From NCBI GenBank assembly GCA_965231035.1, contig OZ246409.1, forward strand, positions 463,041 through 495,040: a stretch of DNA of 32,000 nucleotides, written 5' to 3'. Source of the stretch: an uncultured Muribaculaceae bacterium (GTDB lineage: Bacteria; Pseudomonadota; Alphaproteobacteria; Rs-D84). Positions within the stretch are counted from its first letter, which is position 1, and each line of letters begins with the position of its first letter. Positions 10,985 to 27,209 of this stretch are shown here, piece after piece. Under the pieces are notes generated by a model, which saw only the letters and a program-made list of their open reading frames with translations, did no database searches and was not told the DNA's origin. A program made the translations under genes and the position numbers.

Positions 10985-12619
10985 ATGTTTATAAAAAGAT
11001 TTTTAGGGTTTTCTGCACTGACTTTGACACTGTTTGGTTGTGCCCAACAGGCTGGTTGGCATTCTGAATACGGAAATTTGCCCGCACAAAAACCGTCTGA
11101 AATTCAATCAGGGTTAAGCTATGCTAACTATGGTTCTTATGATCAAACTGATAATTTTGCACCTGTTCTTCAAACTCAGGAAAAAAAGAACATTTCTGTT
11201 CTGCTTCCTTTGTCTGGATCAAATGCAGAATTGGGTAAAAGCATAACTCATTCAATTGAAATGGCATTTCTGCAACACCCAGATAAAAACATTTCTGTAA
11301 AATTCTTTGATGTGTCTGGGAATTACAATCAAAAACAGGCTGTTATTTCAAATGCACTTTCTTCAAACCCAGATATAATTATTGGCCCAGTATTTGCCGA
11401 AGATGCAAAAATGGTTCGCGATATGAAACCAGAAAGTTTGCCTGTTTTGTCATTTACATCTGATGTAAAAGCATTTGGAAAAGGTGTTATGACAATGGCA
11501 TTGATACCTGGACAAAGTGTTGAAGCTATTGTAAAAGAAATGAATAAGGATAATATTCAAAGAACAGTTATTTTTGCACCAAAAACCGATTCTGGTGAAT
11601 TTATGGCGGGTTCTGCTGTATTGGCTGCAAATATTTATGATATGCCAATTTCTGGACTTTTTTACTATGAACCAGGAAATTCTGAATCAATAAAACAGGC
11701 TGCAAAAACAGCCGCAATGTTTGATGCACGCTCTGCTGCAAATACTCGTGCACGCGAAATATTATCAGATATTTTGATCCAGGAAAAATTAAGCCAATCT
11801 CAGAAAACATCTATTAATGATCAGTTAGAAAAAATATCAAAATCAGATACTGTTGGCAACGCGCCGTATGATGCCGTATTATTCCTGGGTAATGCTGATG
11901 ATTCCAAAACAATTGCCTCGTTCCTGCGTTATTTTGATGTTTCGCCCCGGGATGCACATTTTTACGGAACAGCATTATGGGATACACCAGATTTGATTAA
12001 TGACTTTAATATGACTGGGGCAAAGTTTGCAGGATTGCCAGCAATGTCCGAAGATTTTGCAAGATTGTATGAACAGCTGGCTGGAAACCGTCCGACACGA
12101 TTGGATACTTTTGGATTTGATGCTGCGAATTTGGCACGTGGAATGCTGTATTCTGATAAATCTGTTGCGGCATATCTTCTGGACCCCAGTGGATATAATG
12201 GCTTGGATGGATTATTCAGATTGCGTCCCAGTGGCGAAAGCGAACGTGCATTGCAAATTGTAAAATTAACAGGTGGCGGTGCGGTAAGTGTTGAAAGATC
12301 CCCGGCAAATGATTTCTTGGTACCTTTGTATAGTATCCAAGCCAAGCAGATTTCACCTGCAAATGACATCGACCTGGTTGGCAAAGGTGTTAATCCAATG
12401 GATTATATAACTATACCAGACAGCTTAAAATCCAAGTATCGTTCAAAAACATTTGGAACAAATACCAAGATTGATACACCAGTAAGCGAAACCCAGTCAG
12501 CTGAAACTGTATTACCAGAAGATGACAGTGATGAAATTATCCAATCACCAGACTTTCAACCAGTGGCACTGGATACAGTGGACAAGAAGCTAATCGACAG
12601 CGTCCAAGTTAAGGAATAA
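10985..12619 (+). CDS. LpoA-like penicillin-binding protein activator / periplasmic-binding-protein-fold lipoprotein
   Basis: Lipobox LTLFGC. The ISVLLPLSGSNAELGKSI..SIEMA motif matches the LpoA C-domain / type I PBP fold. It is divergent from rsmI, as lpoA(yraM)/rsmI(yraL) are in E. coli. A GGAGA SD is present. Confidence 0.6.
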   Translation: MFIKRFLGFSALTLTLFGCAQQAGWHSEYGNLPAQKPSEIQSGLSYANYGSYDQTDNFAPVLQTQEKKNISVLLPLSGSNAELGKSITHSIEMAFLQHPDKNISVKFFDVSGNYNQKQAVISNALSSNPDIIIGPVFAEDAKMVRDMKPESLPVLSFTSDVKAFGKGVMTMALIPGQSVEAIVKEMNKDNIQRTVIFAPKTDSGEFMAGSAVLAANIYDMPISGLFYYEPGNSESIKQAAKTAAMFDARSAANTRAREILSDILIQEKLSQSQKTSINDQLEKISKSDTVGNAPYDAVLFLGNADDSKTIASFLRYFDVSPRDAHFYGTALWDTPDLINDFNMTGAKFAGLPAMSEDFARLYEQLAGNRPTRLDTFGFDAANLARGMLYSDKSVAAYLLDPSGYNGLDGLFRLRPSGESERALQIVKLTGGGAVSVERSPANDFLVPLYSIQAKQISPANDIDLVGKGVNPMDYITIPDSLKSKYRSKTFGTNTKIDTPVSETQSAETVLPEDDSDEIIQSPDFQPVALDTVDKKLIDSVQVKE

Positions 12620-12646: not shown

Positions 12647-12733
12647 TGGTGGGAGTGGCTGGATTCGAACCAGCTCAGGCATAAGCCAACAGATTTACAG
12701 TCTGCCCCGGCTCTCCAACTCCGGCGCACGCCC
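12647..12733 (-). tRNA. tRNA-Tyr (anticodon GTA), class II with long variable arm
   Basis: Hand-folded cloverleaf. Anticodon arm is GCAGA-CTGTAAA-TCTGT, variable arm GGC-TTAT-GCC, T arm GCTGG-TTCGAAT-CCAGC, with an encoded CCA. Oddities are a C4:U69 mismatch and C at position 8. Confidence 0.8.
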
Positions 12734-12874: not shown

Positions 12875-12949
12875 TGGTGCGAGTAGCGGGACTCGAACCC
12901 GCATTTCCAGCTTGGAAGGCTGGCATTCTAGCCTTTGAACTATACTCGC
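12875..12949 (-). tRNA. tRNA-Gly (anticodon TCC)
   Basis: Hand-folded. Acceptor is GCGAGTA/TACTCGC, anticodon arm CCAGC-CTTCCAA-GCTGG, T arm GCGGG-TTCGAGT-CCCGC, with an encoded CCA. Confidence 0.85.
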
Positions 12950-14982: not shown

Positions 14983-16317
14983 TTATTCGCTTAAATAATT
15001 TCTTAACGCATCGCCAGACAATGGTGCAGCAGGTTCGTCAGAATTTGTTGTACTTGCTATAGATATAACGCGTGGGCTCATAAACACAACTAATTCTGCA
15101 AATGGTGATATCAATGTTTCAGGTGTTGTAACAAATGAATGTGTTGGAATACCAATAATCACATAATTGTCACCCAATGTGCTGGGAATTTTGAAAGATG
15201 ATAATTCACCGACACTAGTACGCAAAACAATTTTTGCATCAATCTTTTTTGCACCAGCATAATTTCCATATTTTCCGGATGCTCCAATCGTTAAATCTGT
15301 TTCCAGCCTATCTTCTTTACCACACTGTCCAATATCAAATCTGGACTGCCATCCGTTTGGAATCACAAAAGTTCCCTGGGATATTAAAACCACATTACCC
15401 TGTTGTGACAAGAAGGCCTGTAATGTTTTTGTGTTAATTTCTGGGCTGACCACCAATGTTCTTCCGACTACACCTGGGATTGACATTTTTACATTCTTAT
15501 CCCCAAAGGCCGGTAATATATTCATCCAAACAATTGGATTGTCTGTGCGTGGGTATACACGGTATACGTCAATATCCCATGCAATCATATATTTTTTTGA
15601 CCCTACATCAGACACTATTTTTGAAACCTCGCGTTCTGTTTGATAATTTCCTTCAAATGAAACTGTTTTGTCTTCCCAATCAACTAACAGGTTTCGCATA
15701 TCTGTACCATGCATAGCATCCAACAAAGCCATAATTATATTTTCATCTTTTGGCATTTTCATCAGCCATTTTGCATGACTGGATAAATGAATTTCGTGCG
15801 CATCATCGTCATAGGAATAATAAGCCTTACCCATTTTCGTAATCAACTCTAAAGAATCAGCCAATGATCCGGCCTGAATTGATCCTGTTATTTGTTGTGG
15901 TAAACTTTCATCTGCAATGACTGCAATATCTGTACCATCCAACAGTTTATCCAAGGTTTGTTTTATAGTCAGTTTTTTGAATTCATAATTTGATACATTA
16001 AATGCAGGCAAATCGTCACCTGTATCTAGGCGAACTATTTCAATTTTTTCTTCGGGCACAACAGATAAAACGTTCTGGTTATTCCAATCAACTTCACAGC
16101 GCTTTGGTAATTCAATAGAAAAACGACGTGCAGTATCAGTTGTCAGAGCCGCCTTTTTTGGGAAAATAGGAACCGAGTTTTCATCAATTACCATATTTTC
16201 AGTTACGTTAACTGTTTGGTATTGTTGCTGATTTTGCTTTTGGATACACCCAGTTAAGCCAATCAAAACAAAGAATGCTAAAAACAAATTTGAAATTTTT
16301 AAATTATTTTTTTTCAT
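14983..16317 (-). CDS. Secretin-like outer-membrane lipoprotein (liposecretin candidate)
   Basis: Lipobox LIGLTGC. An STN/secretin-N-like segment is present (LTIKQTLDKLLDGTDIAVIADESLPQQITGSIQAGSLADSLELITKMGKAYYSYDDDAHEIHL). An N1-like segment ends in IAWDIDVYRV. The C-terminus (GDNYVIIGIP...AELVVFMSPRVI) resembles the secretin tail (dG.t.viGGl...eLlvfvtPrvi). Assignment is by eye only. Confidence 0.45.
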   Translation of the reverse strand: MKKNNLKISNLFLAFFVLIGLTGCIQKQNQQQYQTVNVTENMVIDENSVPIFPKKAALTTDTARRFSIELPKRCEVDWNNQNVLSVVPEEKIEIVRLDTGDDLPAFNVSNYEFKKLTIKQTLDKLLDGTDIAVIADESLPQQITGSIQAGSLADSLELITKMGKAYYSYDDDAHEIHLSSHAKWLMKMPKDENIIMALLDAMHGTDMRNLLVDWEDKTVSFEGNYQTEREVSKIVSDVGSKKYMIAWDIDVYRVYPRTDNPIVWMNILPAFGDKNVKMSIPGVVGRTLVVSPEINTKTLQAFLSQQGNVVLISQGTFVIPNGWQSRFDIGQCGKEDRLETDLTIGASGKYGNYAGAKKIDAKIVLRTSVGELSSFKIPSTLGDNYVIIGIPTHSFVTTPETLISPFAELVVFMSPRVISIASTTNSDEPAAPLSGDALRNYLSE

Positions 16318-16330
16318 ATTTTTTGTATCC

Positions 16331-16651
16331 TTAGATGTTCATTATTTTTTCGAATTCTTCCAAAGTCATTTCATAAATAGGTTTTTGTGTCGGTGTTGTA
16401 AGACCTTTGACCTTTTCATATTGTTGGGCAAACTTATCTATGACTGCGGAAACTTCCGGAGTTACAGACACTTCTTTTTTTAACCTGTTTCCGTATTCTG
16501 TGATAAACTCTAAAACATCGGCCGCAAAGAATCTCCCGACATAATTTTCTATTGCAATTCCACCCTTTTGAACACATATAGCCGACATAACCGTGGTCAG
16601 CTGATTATAGAAATTTGCCATCTGTATAAAATTATCAACATTATTTGCCAT
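16331..16651 (-). CDS. Hypothetical small acidic cytoplasmic protein, first gene of the lipoprotein-lolCD unit
   Basis: The ORF track starts at 16678. However, the ATG at 16651 (MANNVDNF...) has a GAGAGGA SD 8 nt upstream, and the predicted -10 box overlaps the 16678 ATG. No family was recognised. Confidence 0.5.
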   Translation of the reverse strand: MANNVDNFIQMANFYNQLTTVMSAICVQKGGIAIENYVGRFFAADVLEFITEYGNRLKKEVSVTPEVSAVIDKFAQQYEKVKGLTTPTQKPIYEMTLEEFEKIMNI

Positions 16652-16676
16652 GTACCCTATCCTCTCTCTTTCATGC

Positions 16677-16706
16677 ATTATAAAAACTATTGCCCTGCTT
16701 TGGCAA
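16677..16706 (-). promoter_or_regulatory. Putative sigma70 promoter for the small protein / liposecretin / lolCD unit
   Basis: Minus strand reads TTGCCA (16706..16701), 18 nt spacer, TATAAT (16682..16677). It interleaves with the divergent plus-strand promoter. Confidence 0.45.
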
Positions 16707-16718
16707 TTAAATTATAAT
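16690..16718 (+). promoter_or_regulatory. Putative sigma70 promoter giving a leaderless mRNA for the 126-aa lipoprotein gene
   Basis: TTGCCC (16690..16695), 17 nt spacer, TATAAT (16713..16718). Exactly 7 nt separate it from the ATG at 16726, and there is no SD. Confidence 0.5.
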
Positions 16719-16725
16719 GTAATTC

Positions 16726-17106
16726 ATGAGATTTAGATACTTACCTTTATTACTTATTTTGGCCGCTTGTGCATCTGCAAATACTGGAAGTATTGATGAC
16801 GCAACTGTACTGAATTGGGAAAACGAAGCTGTAACCATTGAACAATTTATTCGCGACCATAAAAATTGTCTGGGTGTAACTGCATCCGCTCACCAACCTC
16901 GCAGCAGAATCGCTAAGCTTTTGGCACCAAATCAGAGCGGACAAATGCCAGATTGGGACGGTTTATGGGTAACATTCCAGTCAAATGAATATTCTGATGT
17001 TGGCCAAAGGGTTTTGATGTCAATTCCTCCTAATTCCAGTTCTAAATCCGTTGGTTCATACCGTAAATGTATGTTCAGACGCGGATATTTATTGCGCGCT
17101 AGTTAA
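16726..17106 (+). CDS. Hypothetical lipoprotein
   Basis: Signal peptide plus lipobox MRFRYLPLLLILAAC. Length is 126 aa. No family was recognised. Confidence 0.6.
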   Translation: MRFRYLPLLLILAACASANTGSIDDATVLNWENEAVTIEQFIRDHKNCLGVTASAHQPRSRIAKLLAPNQSGQMPDWDGLWVTFQSNEYSDVGQRVLMSIPPNSSSKSVGSYRKCMFRRGYLLRAS

Positions 17107-17140
17107 TTTTCAGCCTGCACTTTTTTCTTATACCGTTTTG

Positions 17141-17149
17141 TGATATAAT
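17141..17149 (+). promoter_or_regulatory. Putative extended -10 promoter (TGnTATAAT) immediately upstream of ftsQ
   Basis: TGATATAAT at 17141..17149. There are 7 nt to the ftsQ ATG (17157), no SD, and no -35 (T-run instead). Confidence 0.4.
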
Positions 17150-17156
17150 TAGATTC

Positions 17157-17837
17157 ATGAAAAAGTCATTTTGGTTTTGGCTGTCTTTTGTTGTTGCTAT
17201 TATTTTGGCAATATACTTTGCCACAAGGGTTATTATGGTGTCTTTGGGCCATGGAAACAGTGCAACTGTAAAATCTATTTCTGTTTCTGCTGATCTGGAC
17301 AACAGGAATTTAACCATGCTGGCCAGTGCAGCTGGTATAACACCGGGAACTAATTCTTATTCTTTGAACCTGGGTGAAATTAATACACGTGTTGCCAGTG
17401 TTCCAGATGTTAAAGAATCCGCAGTCCGCAGATTACCGAATGGAAATCTGGCTATCAAGGTTAAGTTACATAAAATCATCGCAATTTGGACAGATGGACA
17501 AACAATGTATCCATTGTCGGCTGATGGCACAATTATTAAACGATCAATTGATCAAAAACCACAAAATATAATTGTTTTTCGTGGGGATTTGCCATCTGAT
17601 ATAATCGAAATCAACAAAGCAGTTCAAACGCTTGCCAAAGACATAAATTATATGGAATGGGTTGAAAATCGCCGTTGGAACATACATACAAACAACGATA
17701 CTATTATCTTATTACCAGAAGAAAATCCTTATTCCGCTATAACCAGCCTGATGACCTTGGACAAGAATAAAAAAATACTTTCGAAAAAGATACATATTCT
17801 GGATATGCGTGATCCTGCCAGAATATTGGTTCGATAA
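17157..17837 (+). CDS. ftsQ: Cell division protein FtsQ
   Basis: Short cytoplasmic N-terminus, a single TM (FWFWLSFVVAIILAIYFATRVIMV), then a POTRA-like region (VKSISVSA...NLTML...V..V.ESAVRRLPNGNLAIKV). It lies directly upstream of ftsA. Confidence 0.75.
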   Translation: MKKSFWFWLSFVVAIILAIYFATRVIMVSLGHGNSATVKSISVSADLDNRNLTMLASAAGITPGTNSYSLNLGEINTRVASVPDVKESAVRRLPNGNLAIKVKLHKIIAIWTDGQTMYPLSADGTIIKRSIDQKPQNIIVFRGDLPSDIIEINKAVQTLAKDINYMEWVENRRWNIHTNNDTIILLPEENPYSAITSLMTLDKNKKILSKKIHILDMRDPARILVR

Positions 17838-17876
17838 TAGCTTGTAAACTTTTATCGCAAGACATGTGGTGATTTT

Positions 17877-19649
17877 ATGAATTTGTTTGATTCATCTTTT
17901 TTGTGTCTTGATATTGGCAGCAACACTGTTCGCGGCATTGCACATCGAATACGCTCTGGAAAAATAACCAAATCTGCAATTCACAGTGTCGAAAGCGATG
18001 ATACAGTCTTTGCAATCAAAACTGTTATTGATGAAATGGAACGTCAATTAGGCGTACGTTTTGATTCTGCTTATATAACTGGAAATTTTGGAAACTCTAA
18101 TTTTGAGATGATTGCAAAAAGTACCGTATGGAATGGTGATCATAAAATTACAGAATCAGATGTAAGATATCAAATAAGTCAAATTACCCCAAATGCAGAA
18201 TTTTATCCAATGCACATTGTACCGCTACGTTATGATACTTCGCATGCCAGAAATTTATTAACCCCTATTGGACATACAGACAAACAATTAATTTCTATTT
18301 TTGGGGTAGTAAGTTATGAAAATGAAAGACTGAACACAATATTATCCCAGCTTCGCAGTGCACATATCCAAGTCGAAAATATGTTTGATCCATCTTTTAT
18401 ATTGGATACTGCATTGCGCGATTCAAAACAATCTGTTTTGTTTATGGATATGGGCGCAGAATTCACCAGTATTTCAATCTGGACTGGACGTGGACCGGTA
18501 TTTTTCGAAAAGATTCCCAAGGGTCAGGATTTTATAACAAAAACAATTGCCAGTGAATTAAATATAAAGATAAAAGATGCCGTTAAAATCAAACACCAGG
18601 TTGCCAGCGTAATTGCTAGTGAAATGGACAGATTTACCCCTGCTGATACTTTGTATGATTTTTCGCGTGCTGATTTGAATGAAATAATACTTCCGACATT
18701 ATCAGATATTGTTGAAACAGTCAGCGAATCTTTGGAAACAGCTATTTCAAAATATAACCCTTGTAAAATATTCCTTTCTGGCGGTGGTGCATGTATCCAA
18801 GGAATCGAAGAAATGGTCACAGATACATTTGGAATAGAAACACAAAATATTGGATCAGATGCGGTTATACGTGCACTTTCGGATTATGTTTGGAAACAAG
18901 AATCTGGACATGTAAAAGCTTTCTTGGACCGACATGAAAAATGGCAGAACACTTTTGCAAAGGTATTAAATAAATTCAAAAAGAATAAAAACAAAGGAAC
19001 CAGATTTATTCCAATAATGCCCAGCACATTGGCGTTTGATATGAAAAGCAAAGAAACTTATGAACTTTTCAAATCTGGCGGAATTTCAATGATTCATGTT
19101 GATATTATGGATGGTTTTTTTGTGGATCGTATTGCCGGTGGAATTGAAGAATTGAAAACCATACGTGAAAACACTCACTCTCATCTGCATGTTCATTTGA
19201 TGACGGAAAGCCCTGCTGCTTGGGCGGCTGCGGCTGCAAATGCAGGTGCAGATACAATAATTGTATCAACAAATACTGCGGGTGTTCGTGCTGCACTTCG
19301 TCAAATAAAAGAAATGGGCAAAAGATCTGGAATTGCACTAAATCCGGAAAGTCCTGTTGAAATATTAAAACCAATATTAAAAGAAATTGATGAAGTTTTG
19401 ATAATGTCTGTCAGACCTGGTGCAGGCGGACAAGAATTTAATGAAAATATTCTAAGAAAAATCTCTGTTTTGGCAAACACCAGAAAACGGTTTGGATTAA
19501 AATTCAAAATATCCGTAGACGGTGGAATTACACCTGGTGCAGCTGAATTTTGCTGGCGCGCTGGTGCAGACTTTTTGGTCAGTGGAACATACCTATCTGA
19601 AAGTCATGATTTCCCGTTGGCAGTACAAAGTCTTTTACACAAAGAATAA
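17877..19649 (+). CDS. ftsA: FtsA fused in frame to ribulose-phosphate 3-epimerase (FtsA residues ~1-369, Rpe residues ~376-590)
   Basis: FtsA part has actin-fold motifs LCLDIGSNTVRG, VLFMDMGAEFTSISIW and IFLSGGGACIQGIEEM, and aligns along its length to E. coli FtsA from memory. It ends in an amphipathic KWQNTFAKVLNKFKK helix. Rpe part has IMPSTLAFD, HVDIMDGFFV, HVHLM, MSVRPGAGGQEF and SVDGGI. There is no stop codon between them. Confidence 0.8.
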   Translation: MNLFDSSFLCLDIGSNTVRGIAHRIRSGKITKSAIHSVESDDTVFAIKTVIDEMERQLGVRFDSAYITGNFGNSNFEMIAKSTVWNGDHKITESDVRYQISQITPNAEFYPMHIVPLRYDTSHARNLLTPIGHTDKQLISIFGVVSYENERLNTILSQLRSAHIQVENMFDPSFILDTALRDSKQSVLFMDMGAEFTSISIWTGRGPVFFEKIPKGQDFITKTIASELNIKIKDAVKIKHQVASVIASEMDRFTPADTLYDFSRADLNEIILPTLSDIVETVSESLETAISKYNPCKIFLSGGGACIQGIEEMVTDTFGIETQNIGSDAVIRALSDYVWKQESGHVKAFLDRHEKWQNTFAKVLNKFKKNKNKGTRFIPIMPSTLAFDMKSKETYELFKSGGISMIHVDIMDGFFVDRIAGGIEELKTIRENTHSHLHVHLMTESPAAWAAAAANAGADTIIVSTNTAGVRAALRQIKEMGKRSGIALNPESPVEILKPILKEIDEVLIMSVRPGAGGQEFNENILRKISVLANTRKRFGLKFKISVDGGITPGAAEFCWRAGADFLVSGTYLSESHDFPLAVQSLLHKE

Positions 19650-19651
19650 AT

Positions 19652-20047
19652 CTATTTTATTATAATTTTTCTGCCGTCACCAAATTCTTCTATGAAAATA
19701 TGAATTGTGTTTTTTGGTAACTTATCTTCTGCTATTTCTGGCCATTCAATTAATGTAATATCATTTTCAATTGCATACATCAGACCAATCTCTTCCAGTT
19801 CTGATGGATCATTTATTCGATATAAATCAAAGTGCGATATTCCATCGTAATTTTGCACCAGAGTAAATGTAGGACTGGGGACTATTGTATCAGACCCACG
19901 TAAAGTTTGAATTATTGTGCGTGCAATTTCAGATTTTCCCATACCAAGGTTTCCATGCAATGCGACAGTTTGTGGCGCATGCAAGGTTTTTGCAAAATCA
20001 TGTGCCCAATTTCTTGTTTCATCAATGTTTTTTAAAATCTTTTCCAT
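19652..20047 (-). CDS. tsaE: tRNA threonylcarbamoyladenosine biosynthesis protein TsaE
   Basis: P-loop variant HGNLGMGKSEIAR, SPTFTLV and HFDLYR motifs of the TsaE/YjeE family. Length is 131 aa. Confidence 0.85.
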   Translation of the reverse strand: MEKILKNIDETRNWAHDFAKTLHAPQTVALHGNLGMGKSEIARTIIQTLRGSDTIVPSPTFTLVQNYDGISHFDLYRINDPSELEEIGLMYAIENDITLIEWPEIAEDKLPKNTIHIFIEEFGDGRKIIIK

Positions 20048-20050
20048 TTA

Positions 20051-22051
20051 TTACCCCAATAACAATAAATCGTCTTCCATTTGATGTATTTTGTCGCGAA
20101 GTATACCAGCCTCTTCAAATTCCAAATTCTCGGCATGCTTGTACATTTGCTTTTTGTTTTTTTCTATCTCGCGGCGCAAAGTTTCCGCATCCATAACACC
20201 ACCATCTTTACTGTACACGAATTTATTTTTCTTGTCAGTTTTTTCTTCGCGTTCTTTGACTTCTGCAAATATAGCCTTTTGAACAGATTTTGGTGTTATT
20301 TTGTGTTCAAGATTATATTTTTCTTGTTTTTCGCGTCTGCGTTCTGTTTCATCCATTGCAGCACGCATAGATTCAGTTATTCTATCGGCGTATAGAATTA
20401 CGCGACCATTTGCATTTCGTGCGGCGCGGCCAATTGTTTGAATCAAAGAACGTGTAGAACGCAGAAAGCCTTCCTTGTCCGCATCCATTATCGCAACCAG
20501 TTCACATTCTGGTACATCTAAACCTTCACGTAATAAATTAATTCCAACCAATACATCATATTTACCCATACGCAATTCGCGTAACAATTCAATACGCTCT
20601 AATGTTTCAATATCACTGTGCAGATATTTTGCATGAACACCGTTTTCTGTTAAATAATCTGTCAGCTGTTCTGCCATCTTTTTGGTCAATGTTGTTATCA
20701 GAACACGACTTGGCACAACCTTTTTAACTTCTTCTAACAAATCATCAACCTGGTGTTCTGTTGGGCGAACTTGGACAATCGGATCCAACAAACCTGTTGG
20801 GCGAATAACCTGCTCTGCGACAATACCATTTGATTGTTCCAATTCCCAATCTGCTGGTGTTGCAGACACAAATACAGTCTGAGGACGCAAAAAATTCCAT
20901 TCTTCAAAAGTCAGTGGTCTGTTATCAATACACGAAGGTAATCTGAATCCATAATTAGAAAGCGTTTCTTTGCGTACACGATCGCCACGCGCCATAGCAC
21001 CAATTTGTGGAACACTGACGTGGCTTTCGTCCACAAACAAAATAGCATCACTTGGCAAATATTCAAATAATGTTGGTGGCGGTTCACCAGGTGCGCGTCC
21101 TGATAAATACCTGGAATAATTTTCAATACCGCGACATGTGCCTGTAGCCTCCATCATTTCAATATCAAATCCAACACGTTCGCGCAGTCTTTGTTCCTCG
21201 ACATATTTCATATTTTCGTGAAAATATTCCAAACGTTCTTTTAAATCTTGTTTTATCTGACCGATTGCCTGTAATACCGTTGGCATTGGTGTTGCATAGT
21301 GTGTATTTGGATAAACAGTTACCGTATCCATCTGTTTAACCTTGGCACCGGTTAACGTATCAAATTCCCAAATTTCTTCAATCTCGTCCCCAAAAAAAGA
21401 AAGCTTCCATGCACGATCTTGGGAGTGAGATGGAAATATATCCAAAGTATCCCCACGAACACGAAATTCACCACGTGAAAAACCAATATCGTTTCTTTTA
21501 TATTGAACATCAACCAGGCTGCGCATAACATCCTTGGAACTGATTTTTTCATTTACATTAAAAACTATTTTCATCCCTGCATATTTTTCTGGTGATCCTA
21601 TACCATAAATAGATGAAACAGATGATACGATTACAACATCGTGTTCTTCTAATAATGCGCGTGTTGCAGAATGTCGCATACGATCCAGTTGTTCGTTTAT
21701 GGAAGCATCCTTGTCAATATATGTATCTGTGGTTGGGATATAAGCCTCAGGTTGATAATAATCATAATAAGAAACAAAATATTCAACATGATTGTTTGGG
21801 AAAAATCCCTTCATTTCAGTATAAAGCTGTGCTGCCAGAATCTTGTTTGGTGCCATAATTAACGCAGGTCTTCCTATATTCGCAATAACATTTGCCATGG
21901 TAAAGGTTTTACCCGATCCAGTCACCCCTAATAAAACTTGGGATTTTTTACCAGATTTTACACCATTTGTCAGATCGGCGATTGCGGTTGGTTGATCACC
22001 CATTGGTTTATAATCACTTTGAAGATCAAATATTTTTTTATTCACAAACAT
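20051..22051 (-). CDS. uvrB: Excinuclease ABC subunit B
   Basis: Walker [13 protein letters not shown], beta-hairpin region [10 protein letters not shown], helicase motifs, and a C-terminal UVR domain ([14 protein letters not shown]). Confidence 0.95.
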
Positions 22052-26971: not shown

Positions 26972-27045
26972 TGGTGCCCGCAGCAAGAATCGGACTTGCG
27001 CCTCGTCCTTACCAAGGACGTGTTCTACCACTATACTATGCGGGC
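26972..27045 (-). tRNA. tRNA-Thr (anticodon GGT)
   Basis: Hand-folded. Acceptor is GCCCGCA/TGCGGGC, anticodon arm CGTCC-TTGGTAA-GGACG, T arm GCAAG-TCCGATT-CTTGC, with an encoded CCA. The T-loop has C rather than U at position 55. Confidence 0.75.
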
Positions 27046-27134: not shown

Positions 27135-27209
27135 TGGTAGCGGGTGAGGGATTTGAACCCCCGACCAAAGGATTATGATTCCTGTGCTCTACCACTGAGC
27201 TAACCCGCC
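27135..27209 (-). tRNA. tRNA with CAT anticodon (elongator Met or lysidine-type Ile2; cannot be distinguished by eye)
   Basis: Hand-folded. D arm is GCTC-AGTGGTA-GAGC, anticodon loop ATCATAA, variable TGGTC, T arm GGGGG-TTCAAAT-CCCTC, with an encoded CCA. There is a G1:U72 wobble. The variable and T-loop regions resemble E. coli ileX as I recall it. Confidence 0.75.

Follow-up and report, generated by a model that had tools for sequence, protein, structure and literature searches.

Background

The locus described here raises the question of whether a bacterial cell division protein, FtsA, and a metabolic enzyme, ribulose-phosphate 3-epimerase (Rpe), are truly encoded as a single polypeptide and, if so, what kind of protein this is and how it came about. 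The locus lies in a 32,000-nucleotide (nt) stretch of contig OZ246409.1 (assembly GCA_965231035.1) from an uncultured bacterium that GTDB places in the alphaproteobacterial lineage Rs-D84; we refer to the whole stretch as the window, and coordinates are positions within it unless another locus is named. The Z ring is attached to the membrane mainly by FtsA, for whose working a free amphipathic helix at the C-terminus is considered essential. FtsA also binds the C-terminal peptide of FtsZ by way of its subdomain 2B and recruits late divisome proteins, and Rpe interconverts ribulose-5-P and xylulose-5-P. An initial annotation, made from the letters of the window alone, had read a 590-residue open reading frame (ORF) as an FtsA that runs in frame into a complete Rpe, and had offered two alternatives: that the stop codon of ftsA was lost while Rpe is also made separately from an internal ATG, or that the junction is an assembly or sequencing error.

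In this study we use domain models, structure comparison, protein and genome searches, and codon analysis to follow up that reading. We find that the ORF, with FtsA at its N-terminus and Rpe at its C-terminus in one continuous reading frame, is a genuine gene fusion. We further propose, with a probability of roughly three in four, that it represents an ancient, vertically inherited ftsA::rpe fusion that yields one bifunctional, probably membrane-associated polypeptide of ~66 kDa in genome-reduced gut Alphaproteobacteria (Candidatus Enterousia, or order Rs-D84, and deeper relatives).

Results

Two domains in one reading frame

In the protein encoded by the window, the Pfam FtsA model PF14450 matches residues 190-322 (E 1e-10; score 42.4, above its threshold of 31.8) and Ribul_P_3_epim matches residues 380-573 (E 3e-46), and the NCBIfam models TIGR01174 (ftsA) and NF004076 (an rpe subfamily) are colinear with it over residues 27-338 and 380-585. 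These matches and a check of the ORF itself agree with the initial annotation that FtsA is followed by Rpe with no stop between, and the coordinates given there are right: the putative helix KWQNTFAKVLNKFKK comprises residues 355-369 (nt 18939..18983) and the internal ATG at 19017 encodes Met381. All of the motifs named there are likewise found, LDIGS, DMGAEFT and SGGGA in the FtsA part and IMPSTLAFD, HVDIMDG, HVHLM, MSVRPGAGGQEF and VDGGI in the Rpe part.

The architecture recurs widely. A search of 5.8 billion proteins, from which the best 120 clusters were analysed, returned proteins of 588-596 amino acids (aa) with both domains in all 120, at identities from 100% down to 56%. A scan covering a single genome for each GTDB species gave 576 confirmed matching stretches, and the best 80 of these loci (44-67% identity) are nearly all full-length fusions, with a few cut by contig ends (the fusion ORF is so cut in L066, L070, L073 and L080). 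The 80 loci come from Candidatus Enterousia and from unnamed metagenome-assembled genomes (MAGs) labelled 'Alphaproteobacteria' or 'Rickettsiales', from human, livestock, bird and termite guts.

Against this distribution, an artefact of assembly, sequencing or gene calling at the junction has a negligible claim as an explanation. Independent assemblies from JGI, Logan, ENA and NCBI contain the exact protein of the window, on 9 contigs in all; of the 81 sequences formed by the window and the 80 loci, 77 read through the junction without interruption, with ORFs of 588-597 aa; and the junction is free of gaps in the family alignment. Selection acts on it as well, since codon analysis of 11 independent close pairs gave a median ratio of nonsynonymous to synonymous substitution rates (ω) of 0.06 for the FtsA part, 0.16 for the tail plus linker and 0.05 for Rpe; in all three segments, purifying selection acts on the coding sequence.

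The C-terminal half is a canonical epimerase barrel

The Rpe half aligns end to end with the Rpe of Streptococcus pyogenes (PDB 2FLI; E 1e-38), and Foldseek superimposes the two with a template modelling (TM) score of 0.92, a root-mean-square deviation of 1.5 Å and 36% identity. It scores 157.7 against the threshold of 21.1 of Pfam PF00834 and covers positions 2-197 of that 198-position model. At the level of curated families it passes the subfamily model NF004076 (186.2 bits, cutoff 165), though not the stricter Rpe equivalog TIGR01163 (162.1 against 212.6). Residue conservation, here and for the FtsA half, was judged on an alignment of the 120 family sequences. In it the equivalents of His34, Asp36, His67 and Asp176 of 2FLI, which we take to be the metal and acid-base residues of the enzyme, are invariant (His407, Asp409, His440 and Asp548), as are the Met cushion (M411, M442 and M510) and the key positions of the PGxGGQ and DGG loops. 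By sequence, then, this half is a canonical Rpe barrel with its metal and catalytic residues all intact, in agreement with the full TIM barrel and intact catalytic His and Asp residues of the initial annotation.

The N-terminal half is a divergent FtsA

Residues 1-341 are a divergent FtsA orthologue of this lineage, lying in the slot of ftsA behind ftsQ. The 17 best Foldseek matches in the PDB are all FtsA, with target-normalised TM scores of 0.67-0.74 over 348-385 columns of chains of ~380 residues, and PilM follows at 0.55; the best PDB match by sequence is also an FtsA (7q6f, E 1e-10), with PilM again weaker. An hhalign comparison of 20 fusions with 22 canonical FtsA sequences gave a probability of 99.9% (E 1.7e-31), colinear over residues 8-323. 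The FtsA-specific 1C (SHS2) subdomain, inserted in domain 1 where actin has 1B, is present: the hhalign alignment runs colinear through residues 72-160, and the conserved pattern 'H.iP..Y..D...P.G...L' reads 'MHIiPLRYD…tPvG…qL' in the fusions and 'LH.iP..Y.vD…P.Gm.G..L' in FtsA. The Pfam model SHS2_FTSA scores in five distant fusion members; the Pfam SHS2 model has no match in the protein of the window, nor in its isolated 1C region even at E <= 10. Curated FtsA thresholds are missed by this protein by a wide margin (TIGR01174, 78.1 bits against a cutoff of 175.85; PRK09472, 27 against 409), and sequence comparison places the FtsA half as a divergent member and not a standard equivalog. The identification as FtsA made in the initial annotation thus stands on fold, motifs, 1C subdomain and synteny, with the qualification that the half is strongly divergent, silent to the SHS2 model and below the TIGR01174 cutoff.

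The synteny upstream of the fusion is that of ftsA, which classically stands between ftsQ and ftsZ. A ftsQ gene lies directly upstream of the fusion in 79 of the 80 loci, the most FtsA-like distant member has the order ftsI-ftsQ-fusion, and a canonical relative (P0295) has ddl-ftsQ-ftsA-ftsZ; from these three observations it follows that the fusion fills the place of ftsA.

The degree of divergence invites the reading that the N-terminal domain is a degenerate relic of FtsA with no division role, which now helps Rpe only by scaffolding it, tethering it to the membrane or keeping it soluble. The sub-cutoff TIGR01174 score, the 25-28% identity to the nearest stand-alone FtsA and the lack of an adjacent ftsZ would all fit it. 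We nevertheless consider this reading very improbable, because the domain evolves under as strong a constraint as the enzyme half (ω ~0.06), keeps its ATP-binding motifs and many other residues invariant, retains the full FtsA architecture including 1C, and keeps its linkage to ftsQ in all but one of the loci and to ftsI-ftsQ in the distant member.

A putatively internalised tail and a basic linker

An AlphaFold2 model of the fusion, built with 120 homologues as input, has a mean predicted local distance difference test (pLDDT) score of 91.8 and a predicted TM (pTM) score of 0.61. After the FtsA core the model continues as a long helix whose confidence falls along its length (pLDDT 92 for residues 341-350, 88 for 351-360 and 65 for 361-370), passes through a linker predicted to be disordered and enters the first Rpe barrel strand at residues 380-383. 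The pTM value, together with the disordered linker, suggests that the modelled FtsA and Rpe domains have no fixed interface.

Within the tail, the segment of residues 352-369 has a hydrophobic moment of 0.63 (family mean 0.64), compared with 0.57 for what we take to be the membrane-targeting sequence of Escherichia coli FtsA, and by the family median it ranks in the top ~2% of 14-aa windows of a member's own protein. Family-wide, residues 352-377 carry a net charge of +6 to +12. A distant member, P0140, has the tail segment WVQIKNWFEKHL, which resembles the C-terminus of stand-alone FtsA proteins, LGRLGAWFKEHF. A Pfam scan of the junction peptide gave no match even at E <= 10. The FtsA tail and its membrane-targeting helix therefore appear, as far as sequence can indicate, to have been kept and internalised; the initial annotation had seen here an amphipathic segment like that helix, and the moment, the charge and the predicted helix are consistent with it. 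The putative helix, canonically at the extreme C-terminus, is followed here by 221 further residues.

A probable ancient fusion with vertical descent

How old the fusion is can be judged from its most distant members. Residues 1-378 were searched exhaustively with phmmer in 1.84 billion cluster representatives. This search returned ~25 clusters (at 50% identity) of proteins of 540-623 aa, with identity in the N-terminal domain down to ~26%, and a C-terminal Rpe domain was found in every distant long protein tested; ordinary FtsA proteins (400-440 aa) appeared only more weakly than E ≈ 1e-17, at 25-28% identity. Two shorter proteins that might have passed for an unfused FtsA, P0125 (430 aa) and P0121 (487 aa), turned out to be fusions as well, the first truncated and the second frameshifted. 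Across 142 fusions the pairwise identities of the FtsA and Rpe halves, which reach down to 17% and 32%, are correlated with r = 0.95, and such co-divergence of the two halves would be expected if the genes fused once, long ago, and were then inherited vertically.

The initial annotation had proposed to look in related genomes for the same fusion or for separate genes at the orthologous loci: the fusion recurs, and no separate ftsA and rpe with a stop between them were found there. The arrangement expected before the fusion (ftsA, stop, rpe) was also not found among the nearest stand-alone FtsA relatives, of which P0295 is followed by ftsZ and P0294 by unrelated genes.

One MAG, JAZOUE01, carries two fusion genes on separate contigs (L016 and L073), each behind ftsQ, with 57% and 52% identity to that of the window. 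The bin most likely combines two species, and the two genes would then not be paralogues.

One chain or two

The fused frame could still serve two functional products, FtsA and Rpe, released by proteolysis in the Lys/Arg-rich linker or made by internal initiation near the start of Rpe. The linker would lend itself to the former, as its residues 368-374 are predicted to be disordered (pLDDT <50) and it is rich in the basic residues targeted by many proteases, and codon 381 is an ATG in the window, which the initial annotation had taken as a possible separate start of Rpe after loss of the ftsA stop. This start is not kept in the family. Residue 381 is Met in 73 of the 120 family sequences and Leu in the other 47, and in 77 genomes the codon is ATG in 38, TTA in 19, TTG in 17 and CTG in 3; because TTA, which is incapable of initiation, occurs in 19 of these 77 species, a separate Rpe made from codon 381 is not a conserved feature. 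A promoter and terminator scan of 16600-20200 gave counts equal to the shuffled expectation and no promoter-like site just 5' of the junction, a weak negative that adds to the case against the internal start. A Shine-Dalgarno core 5' of codon 381 is absent from all 77 sequences, which is uninformative and proves nothing against internal initiation, since 59 of 60 starts of the fusion gene itself also have no AGGAGG-type core at 4-12 nt spacing (77 related sequences; 17857-17876 in the window). The sequences at these starts point to initiation independent of a Shine-Dalgarno core in this clade, as is common in AT-rich reduced genomes.

Conservation across the junction speaks against two products in a more general way. 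Purifying selection has kept the open frame and the linker (ω 0.16) while the N-terminal domain diverged to ~25% identity. A stop codon is easy to regain and would be expected back somewhere if separation were favoured, and none is restored at the junction in the 77 species or the ~25 deep clusters, which argues that the single chain is at the least well tolerated. We therefore regard two functional products as unlikely, and favour a single chain.

Genomic neighbourhood

The features of the locus are collected in Table 1. The ftsQ gene and the fusion gene are probably co-transcribed. The transcription unit ends at the convergent tsaE, whose own end lies 2 nt past the stop of the fusion (19649/19652), too close for a terminator to fit between the two. 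In ten of the related loci (L050-L057, L061 and L077) the last few nt of the fusion ORF are shared with tsaE (at about 11774-11782 in most).

Table 1. Features of the fusion locus and its surroundings in the window
Feature	Position (nt)	Strand	Basis or remark
ftsA::rpe fusion ORF	17877..19649	+	590 aa plus stop codon; ATG start; no internal stop
FtsA-like actin-fold core, residues 1-341 (subdomains 1A, 1C, 2A, 2B)	17877..18899	+	Foldseek, hhalign, PDB sequence match
Phosphate-1 ATP-binding motif LDIGSNTVR, residues 11-19	17907..17933	+	D12, G14 invariant; aligns with LDIGTSKV of canonical FtsA
Phosphate-2 motif DMGAEFTS, residues 191-198	18447..18470	+	G193 invariant; aligns with DLGAGTTD of canonical FtsA
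Adenosine motif LSGGGA, residues 300-305	18774..18791	+	G302 invariant, G303/G304 at least 90%; aligns with LTGGGS
Long predicted helix, residues 343-367 (FtsA C-terminal tail)	18903..18977	+	AlphaFold2 secondary structure
Basic amphipathic segment, residues 352-369 (RHEKWQNTFAKVLNKFKK)	18930..18983	+	Hydrophobic moment; conserved R352, W356, F367
Disordered (predicted) Lys/Arg-rich linker, residues 368-378 (KKNKNKGTRFI)	18978..19010	+	pLDDT <50 at 368-374; charge; ω
Rpe (β/α)8 barrel, residues 379-590	19011..19646	+	Pfam, NF004076, PDB 2fli, Foldseek
Internal ATG (Met381)	19017..19019	+	Alternative Rpe start of the initial annotation; non-conserved
HVDIMDG: metal ligand His407, catalytic/metal Asp409	19095..19115	+	Align to His34, Asp36 of 2FLI; invariant
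HVHLM: metal ligand His440	19188..19202	+	Aligns to His67 of 2FLI; invariant
VDGG: catalytic/metal Asp548	19515..19526	+	Aligns to Asp176 of 2FLI; invariant
ftsQ, 226 aa	17157..17837	+	Pfam FtsQ_DivIB_C E 7e-10, POTRA_1; directly 5' of the fusion
tsaE, convergent neighbour	19652..20047	-	Pfam TsaE E 7e-32; syntenic in 59 loci
Unknown gene, 444 aa, lipoprotein-like	14983-16317	-	No Pfam match
Unknown gene, 115 aa	16331-16678	-	No Pfam match
Unknown gene, 126 aa, lipoprotein-like	16726-17106	+	No Pfam match
tRNA Tyr-GTA, Gly-TCC, Thr-GGT, Met-CAT	12647-12733, 12875-12949, 26972-27045, 27135-27209	all -	Nothing unusual

The order lolD-lolE-three unknown genes-ftsQ-fusion-tsaE-uvrB-asmA-aspS is conserved in the clade. 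The three genes with no Pfam match between lolE and ftsQ keep their order in 64 of the 80 loci and form a clade-specific block beside the division genes. In the 47-nt gap between the 115-aa and 126-aa genes lie divergent, near-consensus sigma-70-like promoters (16677-16718), TTGCCA-18-TATAAT on the minus strand and TTGCCC-17-TATAAT on the plus strand; the plus-strand site is a candidate promoter for a lipoprotein-ftsQ-fusion operon, with the regional count of such matches not above that of shuffled sequence. Other genes in the window are mltA-like, dciA, ruvC, yebC, ruvA, mnmE, an acyl-CoA ligase-like gene, lolDE-like genes, tsaE, uvrB, an asmA-like gene, aspS, a pagL-like gene, a UDG-family gene and gyrB, and besides ftsQ and the fusion the window holds no further division or pentose-phosphate gene.

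No second FtsA or Rpe was found within ±10 kb of each locus, and the lone weak FtsA-like match, in L017, is an MreB. This L017 gene (5635-6696, minus strand), ~4 kb upstream of the fusion in an Enterousia MAG, is a clear MreB (Pfam E 2e-139), and its presence indicates that the clade keeps MreB alongside the FtsA fusion despite strong genome reduction. Enterousia/Rs-D84 MAGs measure 0.75-1.0 Mb and lack most biosynthetic pathways, and Rs-D84 genomes keep the non-oxidative pentose-phosphate genes, transaldolase excepted (PMC12306168). Given such small genomes, a duplicate ftsA or rpe would be unexpected.

Discussion

A model for the origin and working of the fusion

The observations can be combined in the following picture of a single bifunctional chain. 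In the ancestor ftsZ probably moved elsewhere, rpe came to lie downstream of ftsA, and the stop codon of ftsA was lost; the resulting fusion was probably kept since the cell needs both activities and an Rpe barrel can be tethered at its N-terminus without harm. The protein would be made and used as one chain, in which the FtsA part would tether FtsZ and the divisome to the membrane through its internal amphipathic, polybasic segment, and the Rpe part would serve as the pentose-phosphate epimerase of the cell, carrying out its normal reaction while held at the membrane. In a TIM barrel the N-terminus and the catalytic face are on opposite sides, so that an attachment at the N-terminus could leave catalysis undisturbed. 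Rpe usually forms dimers or hexamers, and Rpe oligomers in the fusion would gather several FtsA units with their helices, which could raise membrane avidity or bias the oligomerisation of FtsA. Such clustering would matter because the C-terminal region of FtsA is reported to be a switch for polymerisation and membrane attachment (PMC4252000).

Several points weigh against this picture. No ftsZ, sought by the tubulin signature GGGTG[ST]G, was found in the window or within ±10 kb of any of the 80 loci. The TIGR01174 score lies so far under the equivalog cutoff that the division function may have changed or been lost. The search for further copies spans ±10 kb per locus, and a second, stand-alone ftsA or rpe may lie elsewhere in these genomes. 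Cleavage in the linker or low-level internal initiation is compatible with the sequence evidence, and membrane binding by the internal helix is itself a prediction. The distant members P0139, P0152 and P0180 have a Pro/Arg-rich basic junction with no evident amphipathic helix; helix-based membrane binding is therefore not universal in the fusion family, and to judge by these junctions some branches seem to have lost the targeting helix or to have something else in its place.

Is Rpe more than a passenger?

One possible functional meaning of the fusion is that the Rpe domain is a regulatory or assembly module for FtsA, acting by sensing pentose phosphates or by oligomerisation and so coupling division to carbon metabolism. 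The domain itself gives little sign of this: it looks like an ordinary enzyme with invariant catalytic residues and no extra insertions, although a passenger would look alike, and a pTM of 0.61 with a disordered linker suggests that the domains do not meet at a fixed interface. Fusions of neighbouring genes may also arise neutrally in reduced genomes. Speaking for a regulatory role are the retention of the fusion over very deep divergence with tightly co-evolving halves (r = 0.95), the attachment of a domain of ~24 kDa exactly at the FtsA switch region (PMC4252000), and the precedent of a metabolic enzyme controlling division in Alphaproteobacteria, GdhZ (PMC4802739). On balance we consider a regulatory Rpe unlikely. 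Regulatory coupling through pentose phosphates is conceivable by analogy with GdhZ. The specific form of it, a hard-wired link of metabolism to cytokinesis in which the occupancy or oligomeric state of Rpe would tune the contact of the FtsA tail with the membrane and its polymerisation, pentose-phosphate flux would gate division and the targeting helix of FtsA would work internally, is in our view an unlikely proposition. If the link to Rpe proved functional and not accidental, it would be a new mode of coupling between division and metabolism.

What is new here is a natural FtsA whose targeting tail appears to have become internal and which ends in a metabolic enzyme, an arrangement conserved in a clade of uncultured gut Alphaproteobacteria. 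The initial annotation knew of no described FtsA-Rpe fusion, and a full-text literature search for FtsA with a ribulose-phosphate 3-epimerase fusion, or for FtsA with Rs-D84, likewise found nothing, broader searches giving unrelated papers; the architecture does, however, sit in hundreds of MAG database entries. In the entries inspected, the proteins go under the name 'ribulose-phosphate 3-epimerase' or 'hypothetical protein', with FtsA unmentioned. With such enzyme-only labels, gene inventories of the clade may list FtsA as missing and so mislead reconstructions of a minimal divisome. A 24 kDa enzyme placed directly behind the helix of an FtsA half that has diverged to ~25% identity is also a natural test of how much the position of the FtsA tail matters.

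Comparison with known systems

Compared with canonical FtsA (Thermotoga maritima, 1E4F/4A2A; Vibrio maritimus and E. coli, 7Q6x), the fusion shares the actin-like fold, the 1C subdomain, the three nucleotide motifs, the position of the gene directly after ftsQ and a tail of ~35-40 residues behind the core that ends in a predicted basic amphipathic helix. It differs in that its FtsA half is only ~16-18% identical to solved FtsA structures and 25-28% to the nearest stand-alone proteins, falls below the NCBIfam FtsA cutoff and has no ftsZ next to it, and in that its putative helix is internal, with a polybasic linker and then an enzyme of 212 residues behind it, whereas the canonical helix is C-terminal. 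With canonical Rpe (S. pyogenes, 2FLI) it has in common the full barrel, the His/Asp/His/Asp set, the Met cushion and the phosphate-binding Gly loops. Here the differences are that the barrel is joined by a linker to FtsA at its first strand and in many species lacks an initiator Met, and that the domain is under the TIGR01163 cutoff though above that of NF004076.

Other natural Rpe fusions also carry N-terminal partners, namely PASTA (P0331, 478 aa), thiamine pyrophosphokinase (P0297, 437 aa) and AP_endonuc_2 (P0304, 555 aa). These differ from the present case in partner and lineage, none of the partners being a cytoskeletal or division protein, and an N-terminal partner seems to be easily accommodated by Rpe. 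Metabolic enzymes that control division are known from other bacteria in UgtP and OpgH. The nearest functional parallel is found in GdhZ and KidO, which act on FtsZ in Caulobacter and share with the fusion the physical tie of a central-metabolism enzyme to the early divisome (GdhZ, PMC4802739). GdhZ and KidO are, however, separate proteins that bind FtsZ reversibly, whereas Rpe is covalently attached to FtsA, so that the likeness is one of possible function and not of family.

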